DNA of 64,000 nucleotides from Stegostoma tigrinum (Eukaryota), in NCBI RefSeq assembly GCF_030684315.1, contig NC_081379.1:13091667-13155666 (forward strand), written 5' to 3'. A model generated the notes under the pieces. That model was not told the origin of the DNA, ran no database searches, and saw only the letters and a program-made list of their open reading frames with translations. Positions 6,301 to 59,805 of this stretch are shown here, piece by piece; positions within the stretch are counted from its first letter, which is position 1; each line of letters opens with the position of its first letter. A program made the position numbers and the translations under genes.

Positions 6301-9300
6301 CTCTGCTTATTGTTGTCTAACCTCATACCAAAATACATCACCCCACACTTCTCTGCATCACACTTCATCTGCTACTTACCTGCCCATTTCACAAACTGCT
6401 TTATGCCCTTTTGAGTCCTCCTCCCAATTTCGAATGCTTCTTAATTTTATGTCATCCACAAACTTTGAAATTGTTGCCTGCACACTATGATATAGAAAAT
6501 ATATATCAGGAAAAGCAAGGGTCTCAGTCACAGCACTTGGGTGATTCAACCTTAAGCCATCCTACAGTCAGAAAATAACTTTTGACCACTACTGTTTCCT
6601 ATCACACAGCCAATTTTGTATCCACATTGCTACCATCCCTTTTGTTTCAAGAGCTATAACTTTTCTCACCCATCTGTTGTGTAGCGCATATTAATTACCT
6701 TTTGAAATTCTATATACATCACATCAACTGCATAAAAAAAAAGAACTGCAGATGCTGTAAATCAGGAACAGAAACGAAGTTGCTGGAAAAACTCAACATG
6801 GCAGCATCTGTGAAGGAGAAAATAGAGTTAACGTTTCAGGTCCGGTGAACTTTCCTCGGAACTGCAACTGCATTAACTTCTATGGCCCTATCTGTTACTT
6901 CAGAAATCTCCAGAAACTTAGTCAAACATGAAATAGTAAGAACTGTAAATGCTGCAGAATCTGAGATAACAAGGTGTAGAGCTAGATGAATACAGCAGGC
7001 CAAGCAGCATCAGAGGAGCAGGAAGGCTGACATTTTGGGCCTAAGCCCTTCTTCTGAAGGGTCTTCTAAAAAAGGGTCTAGGCCTGAAACGTCAGCCTTC
7101 GTGCTCCTCTGTTGCTGCTTGGCCTGCTGTGATCATCCAGTTCTATACCCTGCTATCTTAGTTAAACGTGATTTCCCTTTAGAAATTGATACGGTATTCT
7201 CCAAACTCACTTCCTGTGACATTCACTGAAGCATTGAGCTCGAAACTTTACACATTGTTCCAAATGCTGTCTTCTGAAAAAGAAAATTCCATGAATCCAT
7301 TCACTACCTTATAAGCACTACATAGTAGTAAATTCTTGTTATATAACTCTTGTGTAATTGGTTAGTTGCATAATAAATGGTCTGGGCAAGACAAAAGGTT
7401 AGTTTTCCTTGACTTTGAACCTAAAATTTGAGTAAATGATCAATGCATGCTTCCAAACCACTCTCAGTCATTAGCTTAAAACCTATATCCTCTTCCAAAC
7501 CTCTCTCAGTCATTAGCTTAAAACCTATATCCCTGAGTGGATGGATGCACGGCAGATGCAGTTTAATGTGGATAAATGTGCAGTTATACACTTTGGTGGC
7601 AAGAACAGGAAGGCAAATTACTATCTCAATGGAGTCAAGTTAGGTAAAGGGGAAGTACGACGAGATCTAGGTGTTCTTGTACATCAGTCATTGAAAGCAA
7701 GCATGCAGGTACAGCAGGCAGTGAAGAAAGCTAATAGCATGCTGGCCTTCATAACAAGAGGAATTGAGTATAGGAGCAAAGAGGCCCTTCTGCAGCTGTA
7801 CAGGGCCCTGGTGAGACCGCACCTGGAGTATTGTGTGCAGTTTTGGTCTCCAAATTTGAGGAAGGACATTCTTGCTATTGAGGGAGTGCAGCGTAGGTTC
7901 ACGAAGTCAATTCCCAGAATAGCGGGACTATCATATGTTGAAAGATTGGAGCGACTGGGCTTGTACACGCTTGAGTTCAGAAAGATGAGAGGGGATCTGA
8001 TTGAGGCATATAAGATTGTTAAGGGATTGGACACTCTGTAGGTAGGAAGCATGTTTCCGCTGATGGGTGAGTCCAGAACCAGAGGACACAGTTTAAAAAT
8101 AAGGGGTAGGCCATTTAGAACAGAGTTGAGGAAAAACTTCTTCACCCAGAGAGTGGTGGATATATGGAATGCTCTGCCCCAGAAGGCAGTGGAGGCCAGC
8201 TCTCTGGATACTTTCAAGAAAGAGATAGATAGAGTTCTTAAAGATAGTGGAATCAAGGGTTATGGGGATAAGGCAGGAACAGGATACTGATTGGGGATGA
8301 TCAGCCATGATCATAATGAATGGTGGTGCTGGCTCGAAGGGCCAAATGGCCTACTCCAGGACCTATTGTCTATTGTCATATCATATTCAATGATCTTATA
8401 TGACTCTATGTGTAAAACTGTACACAAGTCTATATTAAAGTGCATTGTCCACTGTGTTTCCCCAATTTATCCCAATCCAGTTGTAATCTGTCTCCCTCTT
8501 GAGTTCCCAACCTCACAACTTTTGATCTCATCTGCAAATGTAATTACTGCATGTGAGAAGGCACTTCATGTAAAACCACCCTTTGTTTACTGTCACTTAA
8601 TCTATTTTTATGCATTCCATCACCAAATTGGAGTCTAGTGTTTTGCAAAAAGCCTTTTAAAAATCCAACTATCTGAAATTTACTAGGTTCTCTTGAGTCA
8701 CCATTCTAGTCAGTCTCTATAAATGATTAACTCTTTCCGAATCTTTGTTGAATGTTTATTGTAACATCTATACATACCTCTTTAAATATTTGCCATTAAC
8801 CTCCTCTGCTCAGATATTATATTTTTGAGTTCATAGTTCCCAGGTTTGACTTTAATCCTCCTTTGAATAAAGTGATCACATGTGCTTCTCTTCAAACCTC
8901 AGGATGCAGTGAGGCATTCTGAATAATGCCTGACAGTGTATGACACCAGGTCTCCATCATGCTTTTGACAAAAATCAAGTGTGGTCTTGCTGCATTTTCT
9001 ATTTCTAGCCTTTTGAGCCATTTGAAAGGATGAGTTATGGTAAGATCCTCGATTATAATGAAAAGAATGGGCAGAGCGTGTGGAAGCTTAGTGTAAGGTA
9101 TTAGTAACTTATCAAACAGCATTTCTTCCTTGTGTGCTACCATGATTTTGAAATAGATATTAAAAGAATTCAACCAGGAATTGGAGCAGTGTTCAAATTT
9201 TCAACAATATTGTGTTTTACAGAGTGGGGATTTGCAAACTTCAGTGATCACACAAAAAAGCGTGATTTATCCTCTCCATAATATGTTGCAGTATATTTGC

Positions 9301-12300
9301 AAATAAAAGAACTGTAATTCTTTGTGATGGAACTTTGCTTGCTTTATATCTATGTATTTACATTTGGAATCACATGACTGTGTAATGAGAAACGTGGGAT
9401 AAATGAACTTACATATCTGACATTAAAATTCCTAATTTATTGGCAGATTATGTGGTCTTAAGTTATGAATCCAAACAAAAGCCTAATTGGTTTGCTGTAG
9501 TATTGAGCATACATAGTAAACCCTAAGCCCTTGCAGGTGAAACTAAAGGATACTGATGTATCCAAATATAATTCAGTCATTCTTTAAAACTCATCCATCA
9601 ACTATTCTTGTTATGTCTTATTTAAATGTAAATTACTATTAGAAGCAAACAGTAGGGAAAAAGTGTGAGATTTCTAATATATTATACAGAGTCAGCAACA
9701 CAGCACCATGATGAAAAATAGTATCAAACAATTTTAACTAATTTCCTATAGCTATAAAACAATTAACATATTTCTTAGTTGAAGGCAGTTATGATTGTTA
9801 AATGGAATATAATAAATGGATATGCTTTCCAGGAGACATAAAGAAATAAAATACCTTGTTTTATGAGGCGACCTTCAATGACTTTTGAATCAGTCTCATT
9901 CTACTGGAAATATTTATTGTATCAAATTAACTCAGTTGTGAACACTGTCATGTCTGGGCCAGAAGATTGTAGGCTTAAGCTGAAAAGTATTGAAGGGTAT
10001 GGAGAAGCAGGAAGACAAGTAATTCAAAGATATTGTTCTTTGTAAGTAGGATTGCAGGTAGATATAAGAAGGGAAATGGCATTTTGCATTTTATAGCAAA
10101 TAGCACAAAGTTAAAAGGTAAATATAACTGCATAAATCATGGTTAACTCTACAGCTTCTGCTTAGCTTTGGAACTCCATTGTAGAAAGGTCTTCAGTGTT
10201 ATTGAGATAACAGGATGCTCCCAGTTGGATGATGAAGTGAAGTTATAGTTATGCTACTTAAAAGAATGACTATTTCTAATGGAGAGTGTCGGTTAATCAT
10301 GGCAGGATATGAACTTGCAAAGTGTGCAATCCACAGTATTTCTTCAACTTTGCTCCAATCAACACTGGATGCAAAAATTGCTTCTCACATTGCTATGAAC
10401 AATAGCTGTGACACCCTAGTCAAATAAGTTTGCTAAGAACTGTAAAGTATGAGCAGCAGATATTAGATTTCCTTTAAAAAGTATTTTAATATTTTATGTA
10501 CTTTGTATGAGTTGATATTTGCTGAGGACTAATGTTTGTACCTGGGCATGAGGATGTCAGCAATAGTACTGACTTCCAATGATTTTGTCTGAAATTAGTT
10601 CAGGACCCGAGGATGATAAAATGATGAGTTTAAATGCTGATCACCAGAAATTTTATAGAAGCAAACGCTTGCCTGGTACGCTGAGGTATCAACAACAGCT
10701 TTGCCTAGAACTGGGAGGTTTATGGCAGGAAGAGAAAAGAAAAAAACTGGTATGATATTTTGGAAGTCAAAAGTGATGAATTGATTCATTAAATATTTGT
10801 ATGTTAAACAAAGTAGTCCAATGAAAAGCAAAAAAGTTAAAAGTGTTGTTATGTGATTTTTGTTTCAGGGAGTAAGAACTAAGTTTGTTCTAAAGCAACT
10901 TAAAATAGGTCACATCACAGTGATGTCTGTGAGGACTATATTTCTCAACACAAGTAAAATAAGTTATAATTTCACTTTGGTCTGTGATGCATAGAAATAT
11001 TACAGCAATAGTCAAACCTCAATCATGTTTAGTCTTCCTGTTGAAATTGTATGACTGGAGCTTTAGTCCAGGTCTCTAGATTTCTAGTTAAATAAACTTA
11101 CCACAATTATACTGTTTTCATATTTACTCTTGGGTTGATTGGAGCAATCCCAGACATTAACCTTCAACTCCTCAAAACTCAAATGCTGGAAAGTTGGTAC
11201 TTACTCTCTGTGAAATGTTTCCCAGTCATGATAGTGTGGTGAGTAGAACTATCATTAGCCTCAGACAATCTCCACATTTCAATTTCTAGTGCCAGATGTG
11301 GTCAGTTTTGCTGTCCAATCCCCTTACTGATACCTCAGTAACAAAATATTAAAGCTAGTCATAATTACTTGCTAGCGAGTTTTGAGAAGATTTGTAGCTC
11401 AAGTTGAGGTTCTGGATGTAAGTTTGCTCGCTGAGCTGGAAGGTTCACAGGAAATGACATCACCAACCCAAGGAAACCCAAACACATAAATAGAAAGTGG
11501 GACATAGCACCAGCGCTTCACCAGAAGCTCACTGATGATGTTACCTAGAAGAGTGACGAAATGTCTGAAAACGAACCTTCCAGCTCACCTTACATCCATA
11601 ATTACTTGCGTTTTTGGTATGTTACCTTTCTTTCTCCCTGATTGCCATAGGACCTGCAGCTGAGCAGGCTGTTCATCACTACCTTCTCAATGCAAATTAG
11701 GAACAGGAAACAGTTTCTGGCCTTGTGAGTGATACCCTTTCACATCCTACTAGAGAATATAAAAATAAAACAACCAATGTTACAGGGCCACCAAAGATCG
11801 CACTCTCCTAGTTTTCCTGAACTTAAATCTGTAAGTCAGAAACAAAGACATCCAGTGCTGTCATGTCTCTATAATCAATTTGCAATCCAAAAATGGTGCT
11901 TTTCAAAGCCTTTATTCACTCATGTTCTTGCATGATAAAATAAATAGTTCACTAGGAATACAATAAAAACTATAGTCAAATCCTGTCACACTTTGCTTGT
12001 CTCTTTTATCTTTCTATGCTTTTATCTCACAGTGCTGTGTTAGGAGAATACTGGAGGTGCTCATTGCTTCCATATCAAAGTAATGCCTGGCAGCACCCAG
12101 GAATATCTAACTTTGAATACTTTACTGCATTAATGTTTGATAAATAAATCACCATTAAAGGCAATTAGTGGATAATGGAATGCAACTTATTAAATTTGAA
12201 ATAGAAGGTTTATTTTGATGGCAGAGTCACTACCTGATGTGGTTCTAAGCCATTCCAGTTTAGAAAGAGCAATGCCTAATTTCTGGTCTATGCTGAGTTA

Positions 12301-15300
12301 GCTGATGTCGAGCTGAAGAGCAGTAGGAGACCCCTGTGTTCATTTCATGTATGATTTATTCAAGTAAACAAATCTGACCAAAAGTGAAAGTATAAGGTAC
12401 AGTGCTCTGGAACAGAACAGCTTTACAGATTTTCCCTTCTGGCTTAATTAAAAATAATTGTATTCCATTTTAGTGTCTTCACATTTTATCTGTCCATCTT
12501 CCCCACAGTACCCTTCTTTAAGTTATAATTGGTGGTAACATGAAGGAGTCATCACCTTACAACTTAGATTTGGCTATACCTATTCAATAGAAATAAAACA
12601 AGGGCTTGAAGGATCAATATGACAGGCATTTCCATGAACTCTTTTTCATCTGACAGCATGAAGTTGCCATATTTGTAAAGGTTCCTTCATAGCTATCAAT
12701 AGCACAAGCTGTAAATAAGTGTCAAGCTGTAAACAAGTTGTATTTGCAAATTGTGGAACTGACCATATTTGAGGCCTCTTTGCAAGATTTGGTAGCTGTG
12801 ATCACAGAATGCCATTCATAGAACATAGAACATAGAAAAGTACAGAACAGTACAGGCCCTTCAGCCCACGATGTTGTGCCGTGGAATAATCCTAATCCAA
12901 AAATAAAATAACCTAACCTACATTCCCCTCAATTCACTGTTGTCCATGTGCATGTCCAGCAGTCGCTTAAATGTCACTAATGACTCCGCTTTCACGGCTA
13001 CCACTAGTAAACTATTCCATGCGCTCACAACTCTCTGGGTGAAGAACCTCCCTCTGACGTCTCCTCTATACCTTCCTCCTAACACCTTAAAACTATGACA
13101 CCTTGTGGCAGTCATGAAGACTATGGCCAATTTTGTCATATGTTGCCAGGTATGGGGGCAGGGGATGGTGGTGGTGAGGGGCATCCTTTAAAGGGTGAAT
13201 CTTTTATAACTCACCTTACTGCAGAGAATTCCAGCTCCTTCTGACTCAGATTAAATCTGAGTGCCATTGCTGCTAACTCTAAGCTCCTCCTCAGGATTGC
13301 CAAGCCATCTTTGTGAATTAGCCATACCCCAGGCTGACAAATCTTTCTGAAACCCAGGGCCATCAACCTGCCTTTGAGTCTGAAACTGGCATGTGGAGCT
13401 CACTAGTAATAAACCACTGAAACCAGCAGACCAATTTCCTGCAGTCCTGGCACCAGCCTTATTAAATTGTGCCAAGTTGGATTTTGATCCAATTTCAATT
13501 TGACTGCCTCAGAGAGATTAATTTTCATGGTAGCCATTTATCCAGACAGCTTCAGTGACTCAGTCTTCTGAGCTACATGTTGAATGAGCTCCATGGTTCA
13601 TCATTCTGAATAAATTGTCCTGGTCAATTCCCTGATCAACAGATATAATTTAGGCAAAAGTATTTAAACAAAACTAATTGATTTTTTTGAGTGATTAGGC
13701 TTGGATAAATCCCTCAGTAATAGTAATTATGGTGACAATGCACTGTCTGTATTTCAAGAGATTGAGTGATTCATGATTTAATAGTAGGTTTTAATAGTGA
13801 TATGGTCTATTTAAAAATGGACTCAGTGACTCCCTCTGGATAGAGGTCATAATGGTGAGACTCCCTTTTCCAGGGACTGATGTTGAGATCTGTGTGAATT
13901 CTTAATATGATGTGCTGTTGAATATATTCCCTTTTTAGGAGACAGATCAGATTTTAAGGCAGTTGATTCTTTGGTTGATTACTTCTTTCCAGTGTGGTGA
14001 AGTTCCGTCGCACCGGTGAAAGTACAAGGTCAGAAGATGACACCTGTTCTGGAGAGCTCGAGATTGAGATAGAAGGAGTGCGGTCTGAGCTAGAACCAGT
14101 TGAGCTGGATGATGCAGGCACTGTCCCCAAAGATTTTGCAAACCCTACAGATGGTAGAGTATATATTCTGATTATAAAAGGCTTATGTTATCTTAAAATG
14201 TGTGCAATATATAGAATGGAATGATGTGCAACATCACATACAATGAAAAATAATGTATTGCTTGAACATGGCATTGAAACTAGTCGGTGCTGATGATAAT
14301 GGAATTGTCTGTAACAGACCATCTGCACAAAAGATTCATAGCCGCAATTTCGAACCTGTATTAATTTGGCTGACCTCAGTCAATATAGATATGTCATTCA
14401 CAAATTATCTCCACTCCATTGAGAAGGATGACCAAAAGCAAATGGAGTGCTTACTCCTGGTCACTGTCTAGTAAATAAGTAGGTGCTGTTTAAGACAATG
14501 ATAGAAGCCTGGGGAGATATTTAGGCTCAAGAATGAAGGATAAAATTTTGATGAGGTACAATAGGAAAAAATATCCCTGCACTTACATAGCAATTTCCAC
14601 TACATCCTAAATTACTTATAGTTAATGCATTACATTTGAGTGTAGTCATAGTGGTAACACTGTAAGTCATTCTCCCCAAATGGTACAGCAATAATGATGG
14701 AGTAATAATTATCCCCTGGAATTAGAACATAGAACATTACAGCACAGTACAGGCCCTTCGGCCCTCGATGTTGTGCCGACCTGTCATACCGATCTCAAGC
14801 CCATCTAACCTACATTATTCCATGTACGTCCATATGCTTATCCAGTGACGACTTAAATGTACCTAAAGTTGGCGAATCTACTACCGTTGCAGGCAAAGAA
14901 TCACACCTCCTGATTGAAAATGAAGGATACTTTTCCCTGAACCAATTCTGATTGTTACACCAAGTAGTGTTGCTGTATCCCAACAAAGACAGCACTTCAG
15001 GATTAGATAAGACTGACAGGAATAGAATTAACCATTCCAAGGAAGGTGAGATAAAAGCGTACTTAAAATTACTATTAAAATTCCCTTACTACTCTCTGAG
15101 TAAAGAAACCACCTCTGACATCTGTCCTATATCTTTCACCCCTCAATTTAAAGCTATGCCCCCTCATGCTCGCCGTCCCCATCCTAGGAAAAAGGCTCTC
15201 CCTATCCACCCTATCTAAACCTCTGATTATTTTATATGTTTCAATTAAGTCACCTCTCAACCTTCTTCTCTCCAATGAAAACAGCCTCAAGTCCCTCAGC

Positions 15301-18300
15301 CTTTCCTCGTAAGACCTTCCCTCCATACCAGGCAACATCCTAGTAAATCTCCTCTGCACCCTTTCCAAAGCTTCCACATCCTTCTTATAATGCGGTGACC
15401 AGAACTGTACGCAATACTCCAAGTGTGGCCGGACCAGAGTTTTGTACAGCCGCAGCATAACCTCATGGTTCCAGAACTCGATCCCTCTATTAATAAAAGC
15501 TAAAACACTGTATGCGTTCTTAACAACCCTGTCAACCTGGGTGGCAACTTTCAAGGATCTGTGTACATGGACATCGAGATCTCTCTGCTCATCTACACTA
15601 CTAAGAATCTTACCATTAGCCCTGTACTTTGCCTTCCGGTTACTCCTACCAAAATGCATCACCTCACACTCGTCTGCATTAAACTCCATTCAAGAGAGAA
15701 ATTCCCTTTCTTCTTTGAAAAATGCCATGGGATCTTTCACAATCTACTTGCGAGGCCATACATTCCATCCAAAGGTGCGGCAATTCACTGGAGAGTCAGT
15801 CGAGACTTTTGTGATCCAATCTCTAGAGTCAGTCTTGAACTCACACCTCCTGATTGAAAATGAAGGATACTTTTCCCTGAACCAATTCTGATTGTTACAC
15901 CAAGTAGTGTTGCTGTATCCCAACAAAGACAGCACTTCAGGATTAGATAAGACTGACAGGAATAGAATTAACCATTCCAAGGAAGGTGAGATAAAAGCGT
16001 ACTTAAAATTAAATACGTAAAAAGAGTCAAGAGATTTGAAAAAAGATTGCTCAGTTTTCAACATTCTGTGTATTTTTCAGATGTGTTCATGGTGGAGGAT
16101 GCTGTGGAGGCCATTGGATTTGGGAAGTTTCAATGGAAACTCTCAGTCCTTACTGGACTGGCATGGGTAAGGTCCTGTTCACTCAACCAATTCTTTTTCC
16201 CTAAAGCCTCAGCTGTTTAGCCCATTGAGAAGTAAAAATTAGAGAATGGTGGTAGTCATTGCAAAATCATAATGCAGACACAGGAAATGAAACAAATTTG
16301 AAGGCTGGGTGTGAGTTTGCTTGCTGAGCTGGAAGGTATGTTTTCAGACGTTTCGTCACCATTCTAGGTAACATCATCAGTGAGCCTCCGACGAAGCGCT
16401 GGTGTTACGTCCCGCTTTCTGTTTATCTGGTTAGGTTTCCTTGGGTTGGTGATGTCATTTCTTGTGTTGATGATGTCAGTTCCTGTTCTTTTTCTCAGGG
16501 GATGGTAGATTGGCTCCAAATCAATGTGTTTGTTGATGGAGTTCCGGTTGGAATGCCATGCTTCTAGGAATTCTCGTGCGTGTCTCTGTTTGGCTTGTCC
16601 TAGGATGGATGTGTTGTCCCAATCAAAGTGGTGTCCTTCCTCATCTGTATGTAAGGATACGAGTGATAGTGGGTCATGTCGTTTTGCGGCTAGTTGATGT
16701 TCATGTATCCTGGTAGCTAGCTTTCTGCCAGTTTGTCCAATGTAGTGTTTGTCACAGTTCTTGCAAGGTATTTTGTAGATGACGTTTGTTTTGTTTGTTG
16801 TCTGTATAGGGTCTTTTAAGTTCATTAGCTGCTGTTTTAGTGTGTTGGTGGGTTTGTGGGCTACCCTGATGCCAAGAGGTCCGAGTAGTCAGGCAGTCAT
16901 TTCGGAAATGTCTTTGATGTAGGGGAGAGTGTTATGGTTTCTGAGTCGGTTTTGTCTGTTTGTTTGGGTTTATTGCTGAGGAATCAGCAGACTGTGTTCA
17001 TAGGGGAACATAACACCAGCGCTTCATCGGAGGCTCACTGGTGATGTTACCTAGAATGGTGACGAAACGTCTGAAAACTAACCTTCCAGCTCAGTGAGCA
17101 AACTCACATCCAGAACCTCAACCTGAGCTACAAACCTTCTCAAAACTTGCTAAATTTGAAGGCTGTATAAAAGTAAAGAGTCTTAAAATTTGAATTAGTT
17201 AAACTAAATGATAACATGTCAGCCAGCACCTTTAAAAAACATTTAAGATGAATACCATTTAAAAATAAGGAGAGAGATGAACAAATTGTTCCAAAGTAGT
17301 TGAGCTATCAGAATGTCTGGTCAGAAAGGTAATTAACCAAGACAATGAGATATAAGATTAGACAATAAGATTGTAACATGTAAGAGCAGAAATTGGCCAC
17401 TTGACCCTTTGCTTTTGTGCTGCTGTTCAATGAGATCATGACTGACCTGATAATCGTCAATGTCACTGTTTTATTCTAAATGTGCACAATATTCAGAGCA
17501 AAATAAATGAATTAATTACATAAACAGTGGTTAATGGGTATGGTCTTATAGCCATTCTAGAGACATGATCACAAGGACATCAAAGCTAGGAACTATATAT
17601 TCAAGGGTATGTGAGTTTTGAACTTGCAGGCAAGAAGGAAAAACTAGTCAGGTAGCTTCATTAATAGAATAAGTGTAATGGTAATAATTAATCCAGGATC
17701 AGATGATCTATGATTTCTGGTGCAGGTAAGAAATAGTAAACAAAATTTATTGATAATCCTCAACTCCACTTTCCCACCTTTTCCCTATAACCCTTGTCTG
17801 TCGATTTTAGACTTGAACCTGCTTAATGACTCAACCTCTAGTGTAGTGAAGGAATCCGTAAATTCACTACAATCTGAGAGAAAACGTCCTCCACATTACT
17901 GTCATAACTGGGTGACATCTTTCTCTGAGATTATGTCATCTGGTCCTAAACTCTCCTGCAAAAGGGCAATACTTCAGTATTCCCTGATTTCCAAATTCCC
18001 TAATATTCTTATCAGCTTTGCTGGCCTCATAGCTGACATAGCTTGTGCTGACCAAAGTACATGCCCCAATTGGCATGTTGTCATTGACCACCATGTGTGT
18101 AACACCAGAGTAGCTGTGCACTTGTGCAGCCGCATAGCTGAGAGGGAATGTTGCTCCATATCTACACTGTCAAGGCTCCCAACAATCTTGTAGGTTTAGG
18201 TAAGGTCATCTAGTGTTCTGCTAATCTCCAATGAAAACTGAGCCAACCTGCTCAATTTCCCCTCATAAAACAATCTCTCTATATGCCGGATCACCCTCGT

Positions 18301-21300: not shown

Positions 21301-24300
21301 CAGTAAAACACAGGATGGAATTCCATCCATCACTGAGGGGAGGTGGTGACCTTGTGGTATTATCGCTAAACTGTTAATCCAGACACCCAGATAATGTTCT
21401 GGGGACCCGGGTTTGAATCCCACCATGGCAGATGGTGGAATGTGAATTCAACAAATATCTGGAATTAAGAGTCTTATGATGACCATGAAACCATTGTCAA
21501 TTGTTAGGGGAGGGGGGAAGCCTCATCTGACTCACTTATGTCAAAGAACAACAAAGAGAACAAAGAAAATTACAGCACAGGAACAGGCCCTTCGGCCCGC
21601 CAAGCCTGTGCCGATCGAGATCCTCTGTCTAAACCTGTCATCTATTTTCTAAGGGTCTGTATCCCTTTGCTCCCTCCCCATCCATATACCTGTCCAGTTA
21701 CATCTTAAAAGACACTATCGTGTCTGCGTCTCCCACTTCCGCTGGCAACACGTTCCAGGCACCCACCACCCTCTGCGTAAAGAACTTTCCACACATATCT
21801 CCCTTAAACTTTCCTCCTCTCACTTTGAACTCATGACCCCAAGTAATTGAGCCCCCCACTCTGGGAAAAAGCTCCTTGCTATCCACCTTGTCTATACCCC
21901 TCATGATTTTATAGACCTCAATCAAGTCCCCCCTCAATCTCAGTCTTTCTAATGAAAGTAATCCTACCCAACCTTTCTTCATAGCTAGTGCCCTCCATAC
22001 CAGGCAACATCCTGGTGAACCTCCTCTGCACCCTCTCCAAAGCATGCACATCCTTTTGTTAATGTGGCAACCAGAACTGTACGCAGTACTCTTAATGTGG
22101 CCGAACCAAAGTCTTATACAACTGTAACGTGACTGCCAACTCTTGTACTCAATACCCCGTCCGATGAAGGAAAGCATGCCGTACGCCTTCTTGACCACTC
22201 TATTGACCTGTGTTGCCACCTTCGGGGAACAATGGAACTGAACACCCAGATCTCTCTGTACATCAATTTTCCCCAGGAGTTTTCCATTTACTGTATAGTT
22301 TGCTCATGAATTAGATCTTCCAAAATGCATCACTTCTTGAACTCCATCTGCCATTTATCTGCCCAACTCTCCAATCTATCTATGTTCTGCTGTAATCTCT
22401 GACAGTCCCCGTCACTATCTGCTACTCCACCAATGTTTGTGTCACCTGCAAACTTGCTAATCATATCCCTCTGTTCTTTAGCTTTCTGCAGTCTCTCTTC
22501 ATTTAAATAATATTCACCTCTTCAATTGTTCTTGCCAAAGTGCATAATCTCACATTTTCTCACATTACATTACATCTGTCAAGTTTATATCCATTCACTT
22601 AACCTGTCTGTATCCCTCTGTAGATTCCTTGTGTCATCTACACGATATGCCTTCCCACCTATTTTTGGGTGCTCTGCAAACTTGGTGTAGTGCATTCACT
22701 TTTGCCATTCAAGTCATTTATGTATCTATAAAATAGTAAATAATTGTGGCCCCAGCCCTGATTCCTGTGCCACTCCATTAGTTACCAGTGTTACGGCTAA
22801 TTCTCTGGTCACTGCTAGAGTCTAGTATTTACCACCTATATTTCTATGTGTTGAATCCAGGGTCTGAAAGTTAGTGTACTCTGGACATTGTACTATGGAG
22901 TACTGAGTGCCTTTTCACCAATCTACAGCTGGATCCTCGTACTTAGAGGCTTAGTGGGCTTTGGGATTGGAGGTGTTCCACAATCGTGAGTACATCACAT
23001 ACGATTATTGTAACTTCTTCATTCTAAATGAATCAATAGTCAAATCTTTCCGGTCTTTGTTGCTCATGCAGGGTAACACTATATGCAGAATTCCTTCCAA
23101 TGAAGTCGAGAGCAAAGTGTATTTTACTAATAGAGGTGAGTGGGATATGATCACTGTCTTGAAATGAATATTATCACCTATTATCTGTGCGATGAATAGT
23201 GAAATTTTCTTGATTGATCACACCGTTACTTGATTAGTGAAGTGTACTGATTAAACTGAGGGATTTCCCGGCTGGGAAAATTCGACTTAACATTGGGCCT
23301 CAGTGACAAGTGCTTCAAGGCCAGGTTCAGCAAAATTTAGACTCAGGGAAATGTTGTATCCTCTATGTTCCATCAATCTCTCCATAATCAAGCAATACAA
23401 GCTATATCTATGGAATATAGCTTCATTTATATAGCCCTTTCAAGCTTTCCCAAAGTCTTGTGTGCATTGAAGAAGAAGTAAAGATTATCTTTATACAATC
23501 CTTCCATAGGTAAAATGCAAATTAAAGCTCCCCCTTCAGTTAACTGAAGCTAAATAATAACCTCCTGAGATGCATAAAGAAAATGTGCCTTTTTAATAAA
23601 TGCCTCCAGTGTATGCTCTGCTGTGTGTTCTGAGTTCCAGTATATAATCCAGTAAACATCACCACAGCCACTGCTCCCCAACTCCTTGCCACCTCTGGGC
23701 TCCACAGTAACACAGGACAAAGGTATCTAAGGACTTAAAAGGAATTGAAAAATCAGTCTATCAATAATTAATTTGAGTCTCTTGGTTTTCTCAACATCTG
23801 TGATTCATGCTCAACTGTAGCTGTCTTCACTTTCAGGTATTCTGGGCCTTTGGAACAGTATTCGAGGTGTTGCTGGCAGTGATGGTGATGCCTACGCTGG
23901 GCTGGCGCTGGTTACTCATTCTTTCTGCAGTGCCTCTTATGATTTTCGCCATTTTGTGTTTTGTAGGTACCTTCTATGAAAGTAAAACTTGAAACAGAAA
24001 ATGTTGGAAATGCATGAACCTACTGCAAGAGGATATAGAAAAGTCACTACATTCAGTTTACATTATGTGTAAAGTCCAGGACATTATAAGTCTTCACATA
24101 GTGATAACAAGGTGTAGAGCTGGATGAACACAGCAGGCCAAGCAGTATGAGAGCAGCAGGAAAGCTGACATTTTGGGCCTAGACTGTTCATCAGGCAATA
24201 AGTCTGCTGTTAGGAGGAAGTTGAATGGATGCATGAAAAAAGACAAAATCTAAAGATGGTGATGGAAGGTATATGTTACATGGGCATTTTGGCAGGTCCT

Positions 24301-33300: not shown

Positions 33301-36300
33301 TATGAGACATGATTTCACATGCACAAAGCAGTGCTGACGATCCCTAATCAGTCTTTGCCTTTCCAAATGCATGTGAATCTTACCGATTGGAATCCCCATC
33401 AACAACAACCTACACCACACCCGGCACTTTTCCCTGCAGCCGCAGGAAATGCTACACCTGCTCCCCCCTCATCCCCATCCCAGGCCCCAAGAAGACTTTC
33501 CATATCAAGCAGATGTTCACCTGCACATCTGCCAATGTGGTATACTGCATCCACTGTTCCTATTGTGGCCTCCTCTACATCAGGGAAACCAAGCGGAGGT
33601 TTGGGGACCACTTTGCAGAACACCTACGCTCGGTTCTCATGAAACAACAGCACCTCCCAGTCACAAACCCTTTCAACTCCCCCTCCCATTCCTCAAACAA
33701 CATGTCCATCCTGGGCCTCCTGCACTGCCACAATGATGCTACCTGAAGGGTGCAGGAACAGCAACTCATATTCCACTTGGGAACCCTGCAGCCCAATGGT
33801 ATCAATGTGGACTTCACAAGCTTCAAAATCCCCTCTCCCCCTGCTGCATCCCAAAATCAGCCCAGCTCATCCCCGCCTCCCTAACATGTCCTTCCTTCCA
33901 CCTATCACCTCCTCCCACCTCAGGCCCTACCCCCATCTCCTACCTACTAACCTCATCCTGCCCGCTTGACCTGTCAGTCCTCCCTGGACTGACCTATCTC
34001 CTCTCTACCTCCCAACCGACACTCACTTTACTGGCTCCATCCCCGCCTCTTTGACCTGTCTGTCTCCTCTCCACCTGTCTGCTCCTCTATCCATCTTCTA
34101 TCCGCCTCCCCTCTCTCCCTATTTATTTCAGAACCCCCTTCACCTCCCCCATTTCTGAAGGAGGGTCTAGGCCCGAAACGTCAGCCTTCCTGCACCTCTG
34201 ATACTGCTTGGCCTGATGTGTTCATCCAGCTCGACACCTTGTTATCTACACACCACTGATATCTGATTTACTGATCTATTGTTCCGAGACTTCTCCTTCT
34301 GGCCTTTCTTAAATAAAGACACTTCTTTTCCACCTTCCAGTCCTCCAGCATCTCACTCATGGCTGTAGATGATACCTATTCCTCTGCTAGAGAGTTCTGC
34401 AATTTCTTGCCTAACTTCCCACAATGTCCTGGAATACATCTGATCAGGTCCTGGAGACTTACCCATCTTTATGTTTTTTAAGGCCTCCACCATCTCCTCT
34501 TCTGTAATGTGGACTGTTTTCAAGACATCAATATTTAATTCTCCGAATTCCCTAGCCTCCACTTCTTGCTTCAGAGTAAGAATTAACGCAAAAAAATTTG
34601 TTTAGTACCTCATCCATCTCCTATGGTTCTCTAAACAAAAGACCTTGTGTCTGTGTGGTTGCTTCCAATTCATTTCGTATTTTCAGGATTCTTTATCTCA
34701 GTTCTAAGAAGTCATACTGGACTCAAAATACTAACTCTCTCTCTACTGTTGCTGCCAGACTTGCTGAGTTTCTCCAGCACTCTGTTTGCTTCTCTCTTTA
34801 TCAGACGGGATGACTGTTTCTCTGCTTCTTTTCTGCAGGTTGGCTCTCACTGTATTCCTCTTTATTGCCAGAGCTTTCATATCCGGTGGTTTTCAGGCTG
34901 CATATGTTTATACTCCTGAGGTAAGATCAATATACAGTTACATGAAAATATTCTAAAGCCAAGGTATTCACTTCCTATGAGTACAACAATGTAACGGTGA
35001 GGTTATGTGACGAGCAATCCAGAAAGTGGCAATTCATGAAGCAGTTTTTAAATTATTCAATAAAAACAAATGTAAAACTGTTGGACTGTCATACTGTCAA
35101 TCTAACTGCTTCACTGATGTCCTTTTATAGGAGTAAATTGGAGGACTTTGTCTAACCAGACCCAAACATTGTTGTATCTTTAACTGCATTTTAATGTGGA
35201 CTAACAAGATAATCAGTTCTCTGAAGCCACCACGGTGATTCAAGAAAACTCACTATCATCTTTTCAAGAATGGGCAATACATGTGGCTTTGCCAGTGATG
35301 CTCATGTTCTGAGGATGCATAAAGAAAGGCTCACAGTTGATGAAATTGGGAGAGTTGAGTACATTTCACTGCTCGGAATTTACAGTATTAGATTGACAGA
35401 TTTTTATAAAACTATCTTCACCTGAGAGTGGCAATTAAAGTTAGAATAAAGATTCTGAGAACAAGAGTTAAATTCAGATTCCCTCAAACAATTTGCATCT
35501 GTGAAGAGGGAGGGGTACACTAAGCACAAATGAACTGTAAGGTGACAAGGATTTTGGGCTAAATGTGCATGAAATTTGTAATGTAAGTATAAAATGGTTG
35601 GCAACTATTAAGTTTAGCTTTCTCCTCCAAGTTCACACACTGCCTGCTGATTTACCACTGCATCATCCACTACCTTTATAACTGTCTCTTACCCCCTGAT
35701 GCCAAAACCCCAGTCCATAACTAAGTATACAAAGGGCCTAGACCCTCGAAACGTTAGCTTTTGTGCTCGTAAGATGCTGCTTGGCCTGCTGTGTTCATCC
35801 AGCTCCACACTTTGTTATCGCGGATTCTCCAGCATCTGCAGTTCCCATTATCTCTAGTATACAAAGGTCTTGTTTTACGGTCTTGTGACTGCACCCTGCC
35901 TCCAATAACTCACACTCCCATATAGCCAATTCATTCAAGACATTGCAACTTGGGTTTGCACCTGCACTGAACCCTGATTTACACCACCAATCTTCTCCAT
36001 GCTGCACTGGCTCTCAATTCTCTGATGAGGTCTCTACAAAATTCTTGTTTTTTTTCCAATTCCCTTCATTGTCTATCACTCCACTGTACTTTAATGATAT
36101 CTTCTTGGTTTAATTCCCCAAATGAATGTTTGCTTTACTAACATTCTCACTTTGTTCCTTATTTCTTGTACCCTACCAGTAGTGGCTGCAAGTTCAATCA
36201 CCTTCTTGCTGGTTTGTGGAGCGTCTGCCCAGTTTCTTCCCCCTTGCAACCTCTGTTCTTAAGAAAATGTCATTTCCAACAAATGTTTAGCTCCACCACT

Positions 36301-37985
36301 CTAAACCTCTCCATTTCTTACTCTTTCCTCCTCTGGTTGTAATTCCTGCTTTAGATTCCTTTTATAGAGGCTGTGAGCAGTAAAGATGCAATACAAAATG
36401 GCTTAGACCAGCTCCAATTATCATCCTTCACTTTATTACCTCATTGGTTTTTCTTTTCTCCCAGGTTTACCCAACTGCAACCCGTGCATTAGGATTAGGA
36501 ACGTGTAGTGGGATGGCACGAGTGGGGGCTCTCATCACTCCTTTCATTGCACAGGTAAAGATGAATATGAATCCCATCCTTCATCTAATTCATTCCAGCC
36601 ACAATGTTCTCATTGGACTGGACTCTACTGGCCCTCCTACAATGAGGTCTGAAGTGACAGGGCCCATTACAAGATGGGAGAATAAGGGTTTGCGTTCCTC
36701 TCACCTTTCCTTCACTATAACACTTCAGAAGTGGCAGAGTCCCTCTTGTATAAAGGCCAATTAGTCCATTTAAGTAGCCAATTATGGGTCTCCTACAGCT
36801 GCTGCTGCCACTTTACCAGCAGTGGAGCGACCACCTGCCACAAGGGCTAACCTGGTGAAATCTGACCACTTCCCCGTTGCCAAGAGTAACGTCTGCCCCT
36901 GCTAACAAACTCAACACTGGGGAGGGCAATTGCTGTTCCCAAACTGGACAAAATCTTTCAAAGTTCTTGCTCCTGAACATTACTCAGTAACTGTTGTTAG
37001 AAAGCAGTTATGTGGATGCCTGCCAAGGACAAGATCATGCTCTGCTGTAATTTGCAAAGTGTCTTTTTACTGCTCACATTCAAACATGAAAATGACCACT
37101 TATAAAGTCTGAAGGTGCATTGCCTTCAACAGTGGAAGTATGCTTCACAATGTGTCACCCAATATATAAACCAACATGTAGCATGAGTGGGCCACTGGGC
37201 CCTTTGAGCTTGCTCTATCATAAGATCATGGCTGATTTGATTACTCCACATTCCCATCTACCTCCGATAACTTTTTATCTTCTTGCTTATCAAGTACTTT
37301 GGTCTGAAAAATATCCAAAATCGCTGCATCCACCATCATCTCTTGGAGGAGGGGGAATGGAGATTAAATACTGTTAATAAAGTGTCTATTGCTCCAGAGT
37401 TGTATTGATGACTGCCATGTCATGATGGCAAAGATGCAAAGTTGTCATCTAATGCCCTGTGCCAGAGAGCAGTGAGATGTAGAGATTTCCACCCATTTTA
37501 CTTTTCCAGCTCTGCCACCAGACTGAATGGGATTGCAGGCTTCCAGACAGTAAAGAAATTTAGACAGTGTTATCCACTACAAAAGCCCATATGCTCATCC
37601 TAGAGGCTGACTTCAGTGAGGTGGCAAAGACTTGAAAGCAGTTTGAGCTTTCAGCTAATGATGACATCTACTGCAAAGAAATAAGGTTGAAATCAAACAA
37701 AGCACTGTCCAGAATCTCTTGCAAAATGTTAACATTTTTATAGCGGAGTGAAGAAAGATGTTTTAGTTTACGAAACCTGTTTTTCCCAACCAGGTTATGT
37801 TGGAATCCTCAATCTACCTGACACTTTCCGTATATAGTGGATGCTGCCTATTGGCAGCCCTTGCTTCCTGTTTCCTACCAATTGAGACGATGGGGCGAGG
37901 CCTGCAAGAGTCCAGCCAGCGGGAATGGGGCCAGGAAATGGTGGGCAGGACACATTGCTCAAGCAGCTCAACCAGGAGCACCTAG
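3292..37985 (+). CDS. SVOP: SVOP, synaptic vesicle 2-related protein (MFS transporter); complete spliced CDS, 16 exons, 1632 nt = 543 aa + stop
   Basis: Manually spliced exons: 3292-3326, 13993-14153, 16081-16166, 19834-19932, 20072-20143, 22861-22985, 23072-23135, 23837-23962, 26295-26423, 28246-28319, 29367-29443, 30523-30630, 31339-31450, 34839-34920, 36465-36554, 37794-37985. All introns are GT-AG with consistent phases. The translation [22 protein letters not shown]...[11 protein letters not shown]...WLPESARY...IDRIGRKKT...[12 protein letters not shown]...[25 protein letters not shown] matches vertebrate SVOP and carries the MFS/sugar-porter motifs. Confidence 0.97.
5690..6720 (-). mobile_element. 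Old degenerate CR1 LINE fragments
   Basis: ccactgatccctgtggtacc...tcaaaagccttcc...aagtccaaat, typical of CR1 RT read antisense. Confidence 0.7.
6734..6864 (-). mobile_element. Penelope-like pseudo-LTR fragment (third family)
   Basis: aagaactgcagatgctg...gttaacgtttcaggtccggtga, same family as 27176-27393; flanked by a caactgcat direct repeat. Confidence 0.7.
6932..7156. mobile_element. Short inverted Penelope-like (Neptune family) insertion
   Basis: Head-to-head pseudo-LTR copies; 15-bp TSD cttagtcaaacatga / cttagttaaacgtga. Confidence 0.8.
7450..7532 (+). repeat. 42-bp tandem duplication at a LINE 5' junction
   Basis: cttccaaacc(a/t)ctctcagtcattagcttaaaacctatatcc twice, one mismatch. Confidence 0.95.
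7533..8377 (+). mobile_element. Young CR1-type LINE 3' fragment
   Basis: ORFs 7541-8041 and 8051-8290 lie in one frame with a single TAG (QMQFNVDKC...[15 protein letters not shown]...RGDLIE...FFTQRVV); (CTATTGT)n tail. Confidence 0.95.
11373..11596. mobile_element. Short inverted Penelope-like (Poseidon family) insertion
   Basis: Same terminal sequence as the 16308-17151 element; 13-bp TSD cataattacttgc at 11360-11372 and 11597-11609. Confidence 0.85.
11529..11568 (+). ncRNA. Hammerhead-like motif, partly decayed
   Basis: UCA-CUGAUGA-U-GUUAC...GUGAC-GAAAU-GUC-UGA; stem III palindrome changed from ACGU to AUGU. Confidence 0.5.
12817..13115 (-). mobile_element. CR1 LINE extreme 3' fragment
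   Basis: (CATAGAA)n tail; [25 protein letters not shown]. Confidence 0.9.
13993..14153 (+). CDS. SVOP: SVOP coding exon 2 ([16 protein letters not shown]...DFANPTD)
   Basis: tttccag acceptor, G|gtagag donor, 161 nt. Confidence 0.95.
14724..15690 (-). mobile_element. Young CR1 LINE 3' fragment interrupted by a 171-bp templated insertion
   Basis: ORF 15075-15689 (204 aa, [14 protein letters not shown]...FFTQRVVRE) continues at 14810-14898 ([23 protein letters not shown]); agaacatagaacat tail. Confidence 0.95.
14901..16011 (+). repeat. Exact 171-bp direct duplication (14901-15071 = 15841-16011)
   Basis: Base-by-base identical from tcacacctcc to acttaaaatta; offset 940 bp. Confidence 0.97.
15700..15870 (-). 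mobile_element. Degenerate Deu-domain SINE (SacSINE1/AmnSINE1-like)
   Basis: aatgccatgggatcttt...ctggagagtcagtcgaga...tctctagagt...cttgaactcacacctcctga resembles the recalled Deu-SINE consensus; a plus-strand relative is likely at about 46570-46690. Confidence 0.5.
16081..16166 (+). CDS. SVOP: SVOP coding exon 3 ([29 protein letters not shown])
   Basis: tttttcag acceptor, gtaagg donor, 86 nt. Confidence 0.96.
16308..17151 (-). mobile_element. Penelope-like element (Poseidon-type), 5'-truncated, with inverted pseudo-LTR
   Basis: ORF 16364-16825(-) encodes a GIY-YIG endonuclease ([19 protein letters not shown]...RIHEH...REFLEAWHS...IN). Inverted terminal copy at about 17007-17151. 14-bp TSD aaatttgaaggctg at 16294-16307 and 17152-17165. 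Confidence 0.92.
16344..16383 (-). ncRNA. Minimal type I hammerhead ribozyme motif (PLE-associated)
   Basis: UCA-CUGAUGA-U-GUUACC-UAGAAU-GGUGAC-GAAAC-GUC-UGA: intact core, 6-bp stem II, 3-bp stem I, palindromic ACGU stem III. Confidence 0.75.
17360..19790 (-). mobile_element. Patchwork of old CR1 LINE fragments
   Basis: gagatcatgactgacctgataat 3' UTR, ctcaactccactttccc, aaccaaaactgttcatagtat and upstream ORF2/ORF1-like antisense sequence. Confidence 0.65.
19834..19932 (+). CDS. SVOP: SVOP coding exon 4 ([33 protein letters not shown])
   Basis: ttttgtag acceptor, gtatga donor, 99 nt. Confidence 0.96.
20072..20143 (+). CDS. SVOP: SVOP coding exon 5 ([24 protein letters not shown])
   Basis: ctttag acceptor, gtgagt donor, 72 nt; MFS motif A. 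Confidence 0.96.
20440..21100 (-). mobile_element. Old CR1 LINE 3' fragment
   Basis: atcatggctgatctg...ctctggtcctagac...cttctaaactccaatga. Confidence 0.8.
21337..21542 (+). mobile_element. tRNA-derived SINE (second family), 5' half
   Basis: gggaggtggtgaccttgtggt...gggtttgaatcccaccatggcagatggtggaat; truncated by a CR1 insertion. Confidence 0.85.
21543..22790 (-). mobile_element. CR1 LINE fragments (young 21543-22462, older to 22790)
   Basis: ORF 21698-22219 with frameshifts; (GAACAAA)n-type tail; cacctgcaaactt (KFADD-like motif antisense). Confidence 0.9.
22861..22985 (+). CDS. SVOP: SVOP coding exon 6 ([42 protein letters not shown])
   Basis: atccag acceptor, TC|gtgagt donor, 125 nt. Confidence 0.96.
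23072..23135 (+). CDS. SVOP: SVOP coding exon 7 ([21 protein letters not shown])
   Basis: atgcag acceptor, gtgagt donor, 64 nt; preceded by an 86-nt intron. Confidence 0.96.
23837..23962 (+). CDS. SVOP: SVOP coding exon 8 ([42 protein letters not shown])
   Basis: ctttcag acceptor, gtaggt donor, 126 nt. Confidence 0.96.
24103..24195 (-). mobile_element. Penelope-like pseudo-LTR fragment (Neptune family)
   Basis: gataacaaggtgtagagctggatgaacacagcaggccaagcag...gggcctagac. Confidence 0.75.
24590..26020 (-). mobile_element. CR1 LINE ORF2 fragment
   Basis: ORFs 25785-25979 ([18 protein letters not shown]), 25452-25700 ([13 protein letters not shown]...SKFADDTK), 25017-25238 and 24713-25027. Confidence 0.93.
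26295..26423 (+). CDS. SVOP: SVOP coding exon 9 ([43 protein letters not shown])
   Basis: tttctag acceptor, gtaagg donor, 129 nt; PES motif. Confidence 0.96.
27176..27393. mobile_element. Short inverted Penelope-like insertion (third family)
   Basis: Near-perfect inverted arms of about 70 bp; 14-bp TSD ttagcctggaactt at 27162-27175 and 27394-27407. Confidence 0.8.
27240..27269 (-). ncRNA. Minimal hammerhead-like motif (third PLE family)
   Basis: CUGAGGA-A-GGGUC-ACCA-GACUU-GAAAC-GUU; stem II has G-U pairs and stem I is weak. Confidence 0.55.
27540..27780 (+). mobile_element. Degenerate AmnSINE2-like element
   Basis: ctcctggtcgctaatccagtgactcttgctggaaa...gatgtcaggtaagg...actcactatc resembles the recalled AmnSINE2 consensus; a 5' piece tgctgagttagctgat lies at about 12290. 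Confidence 0.4.
28246..28319 (+). CDS. SVOP: SVOP coding exon 10 ([25 protein letters not shown])
   Basis: gacag acceptor, TG|gtaagt donor, 74 nt. Confidence 0.95.
29367..29443 (+). CDS. SVOP: SVOP coding exon 11 ([25 protein letters not shown])
   Basis: tttttag acceptor, A|gtaagt donor, 77 nt. Confidence 0.96.
30523..30630 (+). CDS. SVOP: SVOP coding exon 12 ([37 protein letters not shown])
   Basis: tttttttag acceptor, G|gtgaga donor, 108 nt. Confidence 0.95.
30740..31140 (+). mobile_element. 3' end of a second LINE family sharing its tail with the tRNA-SINEs
   Basis: aagatgcactgc...caccacct..gaaggacaagggca...gcagctcaagaaggcag...caactagggc...atgaatg; tail resembles 43600-43670 and 60390-60433. 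Confidence 0.6.
31339..31450 (+). CDS. SVOP: SVOP coding exon 13 ([37 protein letters not shown])
   Basis: ttccgcag acceptor, AG|gtaatt donor, 112 nt; second DRxGRK motif. Confidence 0.96.
32780..34630 (-). mobile_element. CR1 LINE ORF2 fragment, interrupted by a PLE at 33419-34247
   Basis: ORFs 34353-34562 (KSPGPDQMY), 33193-33420 ([11 protein letters not shown]) and 32823-33023 ([16 protein letters not shown]). Confidence 0.9.
33419..34247 (+). mobile_element. Penelope-like element (Neptune-type) 3' fragment nested in a CR1 LINE
   Basis: Cys-rich linker CSRRKCYTC followed by GIY-YIG ([21 protein letters not shown]...F.EH), a C-rich 3' UTR and a pseudo-LTR; CR1 sequence resumes after 34250. 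Confidence 0.9.
34839..34920 (+). CDS. SVOP: SVOP coding exon 14 ([27 protein letters not shown])
   Basis: ttctgcag acceptor, gtaaga donor, 82 nt. Confidence 0.96.
35736..35855 (+). mobile_element. Penelope-like pseudo-LTR plus tail (Neptune family)
   Basis: Same sequence family as 51203-51422; 12-bp TSD agtatacaaagg at 35724-35735 and 35856-35867. Confidence 0.8.
36465..36554 (+). CDS. SVOP: SVOP coding exon 15 ([30 protein letters not shown])
   Basis: ctcccag acceptor, gtaaag donor, 90 nt. Confidence 0.96.
37794..37985 (+). CDS. SVOP: SVOP coding exon 16, terminal ([63 protein letters not shown])
   Basis: aaccag acceptor; TAG at 37983-37985. Confidence 0.96.
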
Positions 37986-59055: not shown

Positions 59056-59282
59056 GTCCTGAAGCAAACCAGGTTCTTCCCTGGACTGACCTATCCCCTC
59101 CCTACCTCCCCACCTATCTTCTTTTCTCTCCATCTTCGGTCTGCCTCCCCCTCTCTCCCTATTTATTCCAGAACCCTCACCCCATCCCCCTCTCTGATGA
59201 AGGGTCTAGGCCCGAAACGTCAGCTTTTGTGCTCCTGAGATACTGCTGGGCCTGCTGTGTTCATCCAGCCTCACATTTCGTT
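59056..59282 (+). mobile_element. Penelope-like 3' UTR / pseudo-LTR (Neptune family)
   Basis: Homologous to 33975-34247; 11-bp TSD atccatggtgt at 59045-59055 and 59283-59293. Confidence 0.8.
59192..59223 (+). ncRNA. Minimal type I hammerhead ribozyme motif (PLE-associated)
   Basis: CU-CUGAUGA-A-GGGU-CUAG-GCCC-GAAAC-GUC-AG: intact core, 4-bp stem II, palindromic ACGU stem III. Confidence 0.7.
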
Positions 59283-59805
59283 ATCCATGGTGTAATATGC
59301 TTTTCAGTCAGAAAGAACATGGGTTCAAGTACTACGTCAGGACTCAAACACATATTCAGGATTATATTTCAGTGTGGTTCTGACAGAATGCTGCCTTGCT
59401 GTTGAAGGCAATAACAACTTACATTTTTACAGCACCTTAATAGAGTAGACAATTATCAAAGTATGTCAAAAAAGGTTTATCAAAAACAGACATTAAAATT
59501 CAATTTATCCGTTCTGCCACGTTTATATGAAATTCATGATACCATCTAAAGATCAGTATGTCTGGCTTCATAATGTGAATAACATTTCTCCATCGATTGA
59601 TACCATGGAAAAGAAACAAATTGTCTCATTTGCTGTTGGCAAGATCTTACAGTGGGGTACTTGTCTGCCCTATGTGCCTACATTATCAATGATTATACCT
59701 CAAAAGGTTATTCTTTCTTACTGCAGAGCCTCAAAAGACATCTTAAGTTTACAGCATTTCAGTTCCACTTAACAGTCTCTGATTTCTGGTTATTTGATGC
59801 GTGAA

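Follow-up and report, generated by a model that had tools for sequence, protein, structure and literature searches.

Within the 64,000-nucleotide stretch of Stegostoma tigrinum DNA that we analysed (the window), an 844-bp insertion occupies positions 17151-16308 between identical 14-bp target-site duplications (16294-16307 and 17152-17165). It consists of an inverted pseudo-LTR with a tail of ~41 bp (copy B; 17002-17151, plus strand), the end of a 5′-truncated ORF, and a direct pseudo-LTR that carries a hammerhead motif (copy A). The ORF end is made up of a degenerate remnant with a stop and a frameshift that reaches the 5′ truncation point (16889-17001, minus strand) and an open 3′ part encoding a GIY-YIG endonuclease and a low-complexity tail (16888-16364, minus strand; 174 aa from stop to stop). 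Copies A and B are 91% complementary over 112 nt, with 10 of these positions differing. The insertion has no reverse transcriptase core; it is a dead, 5′-truncated copy of a Penelope/Poseidon-type element.

A second insertion of the same family (11373-11598, plus strand; target duplication of ~13 bp) shares this inverted design and comprises an inverted tail (segment D, 11373-11445) and a further copy of the motif (copy C, 11446-11598). The two insertions also share two end points, ~67 and 108-109 nt past an AUG at 16374, and the tail contains a 7-bp stem around an AC-rich loop (17088-17128, plus strand), with the proximal insertion end inside that loop. These shared ends match the tail between two reverse transcription start sites described in the available text of PMC11167929. 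Direct or inverted pseudo-LTRs, a 30-40 bp tail (here ~41 bp) and a target duplication, the features that define Penelope/Poseidon insertions, are all present, and the inverted pseudo-LTR, the tail and the 14-bp duplication bear out the original prediction that the motif is the minimal hammerhead of a Penelope-like pseudo-LTR. A non-LTR retrozyme was considered and rejected: the copies are dispersed, inverted and attached to a coding fragment, and are not non-coding tandem repeats.

The 844-bp insertion lies ~140 nt into the intron that follows a host-like exon with canonical splice signals (16082-16167, plus strand); other host-like exons lie at ~13996-14153 and ~36459-36557 (both plus strand). 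Searches gave no name for the exon peptides, which we take to resemble SVOP. A second PLE-like family is present at 33348-34248 and 59090-59285 (both plus strand), with a Cys-rich stretch before a GIY-YIG-like motif; it appears Neptune-like by eye, and Pfam returned no match to it. Its minimal hammerhead is mutated at ~34155 (A9G) and intact at 59194 with a 2-bp stem I, lies several hundred bases beyond the end of the ORF remnant, and has no stop codon in loop II. There are also LINE 3′ fragments at 15075-15689 (minus), 7517-8041 (plus) and 21698-22303 (minus), which are presumably CR1-like; the two of the three that were scanned with Pfam gave no match.

The motif in copy A, found by reading the sequence and by a descriptor scan, is a minimal type I hammerhead of 40 bases (16383-16344, minus strand). 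A 3-bp stem I, UCA/UGA (16383-16381 with 16346-16344), is followed by CUGAUGA (16380-16374), and the sequence contains the complete CUGANGA...GAAA...NUH core. A single extra U at 16373 stands between positions 9 and 10.1, that is, after A9, and next to it is the G10.1-C11.1 pair that minimal hammerheads require (G16372-C16355). Stem II has 6 bp, including one U-G pair (16372-16367 with 16360-16355), and closes on a 6-nt loop II (16366-16361). GAAAC-GUC follows stem II, with the predicted cut 3′ of C16347. Positions 15.1-16.1 are the palindrome ACGU; the helix III loop is absent and the ends meet in helix I. Each of these elements (all core positions, the extra base, the 6-bp stem II, the 3-bp stem I and the ACGU) had been named in the original prediction and is confirmed at these positions.

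A strict descriptor requiring a stem I of at least 3 bp gave two matches in the window, copy A and a sister copy, against one in 300 dinucleotide-shuffled versions of the full window; relaxing stem I to at least 2 bp gave three real matches against three in 300 shuffles. At the Rfam gathering score the window had no match, so none to a curated hammerhead family, and the seven weak local matches (snoRNAs and others, E 1.9-9.4), none of them to a hammerhead family, were taken as chance. Across the three window copies, 41 of 42 stem cells are paired with no two-sided changes, in a comparison that has only three copies. A 5-bp hairpin immediately 5′ of stem I (16397-16384, minus strand) keeps its pairing in all three, with one U-G/U-A change among them. 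The core of copy B, at 17038, carries A6G; that of copy C, at 11532, carries C15.2U and one stem II mismatch. Core changes thus occur in both copies that are sense to the host-like exons, and the antisense core at 16380 is intact, an anecdote with n=3 in a window that also holds the intact plus-strand hammerhead of another family at 59194. Taken together, the anatomy and the motif support the identification of copy A as a PLE pseudo-LTR minimal hammerhead that lacks the ability to form helix III alone. Copies A and B were rejected as partners in a dimer because they lie on opposite strands.

The endonuclease reading frame and its stop codon

The ORF at 16888-16364 begins after an in-frame TGA (16891-16889), runs through the hammerhead core and ends ...LTDDVT* at a TAG (16366-16364) that forms the first three bases of loop II, as had been claimed from the sequence. 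Its GIY-YIG match in Pfam scores 19.5 bits (E 0.0012), below the cut-off of 22.6. The translation shares 89-94% identity with Stegostoma proteins and 60-69% with those of a second group, found in Chiloscyllium and Hemiscyllium. Several of the relatives at 62-94% identity carry the reverse transcriptase domain PF00078; the order that characterizes Penelope/Poseidon elements, a C-terminal GIY-YIG after the reverse transcriptase in one ORF, is therefore present, with the reverse transcriptase seen in relatives only. Unlike Neptune, the translations of 17010-16364 and of the proteins P0001 and P0003 have no Cys-rich linker between the two domains. The closeness of the ORF to liver-fluke proteins offers a lead toward the Cercyon/Perere subclade, to which the family may belong.

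The TAG lies in loop II in all three window copies, and a Stegostoma protein terminates at the same place. Of 163 relatives for which the end of the endonuclease served as an anchor, seven terminate five residues after a T/S/A/P-D/E-D/E motif, as copy A does, one ends six residues past it, three read through the loop II stop site, and ~150 end elsewhere or do not show the motif, all of this in database C-termini that are noisy and biased, many coming from dead copies or spliced gene models. P0075 stops 28 residues past the anchor, outside the ribozyme, and in P0059 and P0054 the +1 frame leads into the ribozyme without a stop. The expectation that the stop would stay in loop II thus holds for the window copies and the Stegostoma protein, but most of the 163 relatives stop elsewhere. 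The suggestion that translation termination is coupled to ribozyme folding found no support: on reaching the ribozyme, some relatives stop, some read through and some are in the +1 frame, and loop II is free of stop codons in the fluke hammerheads with this layout (PMC4209133, available part).

In an endonuclease tree, the proteins that end in loop II are distributed over three supported groups, and their tails measure 39-81 residues. The tree holds 71 of 186 matching proteins over 132 columns (coverage of at least 95 aa and identity of at least 50%, or a ribozyme-like end; P0019 excluded), contains no named reference elements, and does not tell whether the overlap in the two shark groups comes by descent. 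Such a motif would occur at a C-terminus by chance with a probability of 2.5e-4 per protein. A shuffled tail of the same composition stays open 18% of the time, and since arrival falls in one of three frames, ~6% of lineages would reach the ribozyme open in the stop frame unaided. In the putative start frame described below, the T of the TAG is the third base of a Pro codon, and its A and G open an Arg codon; two Clonorchis motifs, compared by eye in the available supplement of PMC4209133, keep Pro-Arg with other Arg codons and have no stop. The overlap of stop and ribozyme is real and recurrent, not general, and the loop II stop can be explained as a by-product of the Pro-Arg codons, with no need for selection.

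Two sets of relatives deserve mention in their own right. In P0054 and P0059, the endonuclease runs into the ribozyme in the start frame, in P0059 only 14 residues past the anchor, and tandem units of this kind would make one continuous ORF; these proteins may be gene-model artefacts or deleted derivatives. P0028, P0019, P0005, P0014 and P0020 are models of shark host genes in which a fragment of these elements makes up the final exon, and P0028 ends at the loop II stop, so that the annotated host isoform would bear a ribozyme at its stop codon.

A second reading frame through the ribozyme

The +1 frame (16308-16377, minus strand), absent from the original prediction, also passes through the ribozyme; it is the most likely start of the element's ORF and is able to explain the TAG. 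Its ATGs are at 16377 (A6), 16374 (A9-U-G10.1) and 16362 (one base past the TAG), which places in-frame AUGs 11 and 8 nt before the TAG and 1 nt after it. In segment D, the +1 frame is the sole frame open to the end of the tail; the copy B segment has one stop in this frame and copy C an 8-nt deletion.

Comparison with P0075 points to this frame as the N-terminus of the ORF. This protein of 832 aa contains Pfam RVT_1, has a complete-looking N-terminal region and is 48-53% identical to close relatives over ~700 aa; its N-terminus is identical to the +1 reading at 10 of 18 residues (pairwise E 2e-4). Scored against 54,904 windows from 187 proteins, the +1 reading gave three leading scores, 52, 52 and 43. 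The score of 43 belongs to the window at residue 1 of P0075; the next best window, which is unrelated, scored 28 and the next N-terminal window 11. Any hammerhead of this core gives a similar +1 peptide, and for this reason the weight lies on P0075 starting there, not on the similarity. A homolog search with the +1 peptide gave eight candidates, none at E up to 10, and no longer or full-length shark protein. From these sequence comparisons, with one full-length relative behind them, we infer that the ORF of the shark family starts inside the ribozyme in the +1 frame. The published elements of the anole and a rotifer, compared below, point the same way. The family may lack a UTR, its stop and start overlapping within the ribozyme.

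Could this overlap have been selected? The three AUGs close to the TAG on either side, the TAG kept in every window copy, and the same end reached in three tree groups with differing tail lengths all favor such an origin, given the low chance of the motif per protein, as do the circles proposed for PLE RNA (PMC4209133, available text) and the UGAUGA signal of a hammerhead-bearing satellite RNA (PMC4488728, available text). The shark family and a few related lineages would then be UTR-less, a 38-nt ribozyme would contain both the stop codon of one unit and the start codon of the unit after it, and the ORF would be 11 nt longer than the unit. We regard this as unlikely. It is equally doubtful that, as this would imply, the ORF is complete only in a tandem transcript or a ligated unit-length circle. 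Nor do we expect that termination in loop II drives re-initiation, whether on the next tandem unit or on a circle that cleavage and ligation produce, or that translation gates cleavage, a scheme in which P0054 and P0059 would be the limiting case of a cross-unit polyprotein. The ~150 of 163 relatives that end elsewhere, P0075 among them, argue against selection, as do the Clonorchis motifs that lack the stop (PMC4209133, available part), the loss of the third AUG from copy C and of the first from copy B, and the anole element, for which the available text of PMC11167929 reports no reads at the cut site and insertion of ribozyme mutants in vitro. The ascertainment of proteins, moreover, favors tails that keep the frame.

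Folding, cleavage and the preferred interpretation

When copy A is folded in its local context, stem II has a probability of 0.90-0.94 and stem I of 0.18-0.21; within the whole insertion, the probability of stem II is 0. The description of the ribozyme as intact therefore holds for its sequence but not for its predicted folding. The ACGU duplex contributes -1.7 kcal/mol, the hammerhead-like fold stands at -7.0 against -11.5 for the minimum free energy structure, and co-folding of two copies gains ~1 kcal/mol. Dimer co-folding did not return a double-hammerhead fold, which is weak evidence either way in a nearest-neighbour calculation that does not model hammerhead cores. The low stem I probability and the poor dimer folding fit the published behavior of these motifs: the available text of PMC4209133 gives no monomer cleavage and low dimer cleavage for PLE minimal hammerheads, and the anole Poseidon hammerhead cleaved only when the element protein was added (PMC11167929, available text). 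The earlier view that the motif could cleave only as a dimer is right in that helix III cannot form alone, but too narrow given this protein-assisted cleavage.

The same calculations bear on the idea that the motif is a structural or coding relic, which would encode the N-terminus, act as a landmark for protein binding or initiation, and cleave seldom or never in vivo. A stem I at about 0.2, a weak ACGU duplex and a hammerhead-like fold above the minimum all agree with this idea, as do the poor cleavage of published dimers (PMC4209133, available part) and the finding that cleavage of the anole hammerhead is dispensable for insertion in vitro (PMC11167929, available part). We nonetheless consider it improbable, because the full core is common to flukes through vertebrates in the published alignment (PMC4209133, available part) and the anole motif did cleave with protein, with C3/G8 rescue shown (PMC11167929, available part); the folding values themselves leave the hammerhead core unmodelled.

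The location of copy A raises a different question, that of a domesticated ribozyme active in the intron of a host transcript. The core of copy A is perfect despite the 10 differences in 112 positions from copy B, and it lies ~140 nt from a host-like exon. It is, however, antisense to that exon, the core changes sit in the two sense-strand copies, and in a transcript of its own strand it is base-paired to the complement of copy B, with a stem II probability of 0; we regard domestication as very improbable. Folding predicts that, in its own-strand transcript, the ribozyme of copy A is trapped in a hairpin formed with the inverted copy, and because it is both antisense to the exon and paired in this way, cleavage by copy A itself is moot.

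We judge it probable that copy A derives from an ordinary PLE junction ribozyme lying over the ORF start, weak and dependent on a partner or a protein, and that the stop in loop II is a by-product. To the anatomy, copies, ends and frames described above, this interpretation adds a putative start codon, cleavage, its dependence on protein or dimer, and two initiation sites in the shark family. In active tandem elements, the pseudo-LTR would be the junction between units, and the ribozyme would overlie the ORF start, with an AUG at A9-U-G10.1 in the +1 frame. Reverse transcription would initiate at two sites ~67 and 108 nt downstream and so produce the 41-bp tail. Cleavage would be weak and would need either a second copy to supply helix III or the element protein to hold the fold. 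By cutting after 16347, the ribozyme would separate the units, leaving the upstream one complete, 17 nt past its stop, and stripping the start codons off the downstream one. The low-complexity tail of the upstream ORF would run on into the ribozyme and end at the first stop met, the UAG across the Pro-Arg codons, whose position would then be a by-product of compaction and not a switch. Against the by-product view, the occurrence in three tree groups and the frame-keeping indels in the tails could reflect selection.

The role of PLE hammerheads has been called unclear (PMC8557442, available text). In the shark family the stop, the putative start and the cut site lie within 31 nt, and because cleavage would leave the upstream unit whole and take the start from the downstream unit, the role of the ribozyme could be tested by a few point changes. 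If the overlap were functional, it would connect translation with circular RNA and with ribozyme cleavage within an autonomous retrotransposon.

Comparison with known systems

The motif class is already known, and the shark example is an addition to it. Cervera and de la Pena (2014; PMC4209133, cited here from its available text) defined the minimal hammerhead motif of PLE pseudo-LTRs, described opposite-strand pairs 100-700 bp apart, and proposed a circular form of PLE RNA. Copy A resembles these metazoan motifs in its extra base after A9, its G10.1-C11.1 pair, long stem II and short stem I, its palindromic 15.2-16.2 without a loop, its pseudo-LTR location, and a second copy on the opposite strand. 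The closest likeness is to two motifs of Clonorchis sinensis, of Cercyon type, which share with copy A its core, its extra U, a stem II of 6 bp and a loop of 6 nt; unlike in copy A, their loop II contains no stop codon. The available text of Fig. S3 of that paper has no shark row, and the available text of the paper makes no mention of overlap with ORF ends. Since the motif was defined in PLE pseudo-LTRs and two Clonorchis rows are alike, the presence of a ribozyme here is expected. The combined overlap with a stop and a start was not found described in the literature searched, which consisted of open-access text.

A likeness in anatomy is also seen with the Penelope element Pen2a of Adineta vaga (Arkhipova et al. 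2013; PMC3846280, available text), which has an inverted pseudo-LTR, an optional tail of ~30 bp and a target duplication. Its pseudo-LTR and tail encode the first 12 and 22 residues of the ORF, compared with ~22 and 36 here; hammerheads are mentioned nowhere in the available text of that paper. Further afield, the hammerhead-bearing satellite RNA of Rice yellow mottle virus uses a combined UGAUGA initiation-termination signal (review PMC4488728, available text). Its start and stop are likewise packed together in an ORF that overruns the unit length; in contrast to the shark family, for which circularisation and translation of a circle are hypothetical, it is an unrelated 220-nt plant circle.

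The overlap of a ribozyme with an ORF start has already been published for the Poseidon element PAc of Anolis carolinensis (Frangieh et al. 2024; PMC11167929, available text), whose ORF begins where stem II begins and whose cut lies 26 nt further downstream; in the shark family, the cut would fall 25 nt after the putative start codon. PAc likewise has a tail between two reverse transcription start sites, in an AC-rich stem-loop, and protein-assisted cleavage is the likely mode in the shark family as well. The two differ in that PAc has pseudo-LTR sequence upstream of its start (templates from -145), whereas the upstream shark ORF ends inside the ribozyme; no stop inside the ribozyme is reported for PAc in the available text, and PAc has been assayed, whereas the shark copy is truncated and dead. 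Coming from another lineage, the shark family lends support to two results on the anole element: an ORF start overlapped by the ribozyme, and a tail bounded by two initiation sites.
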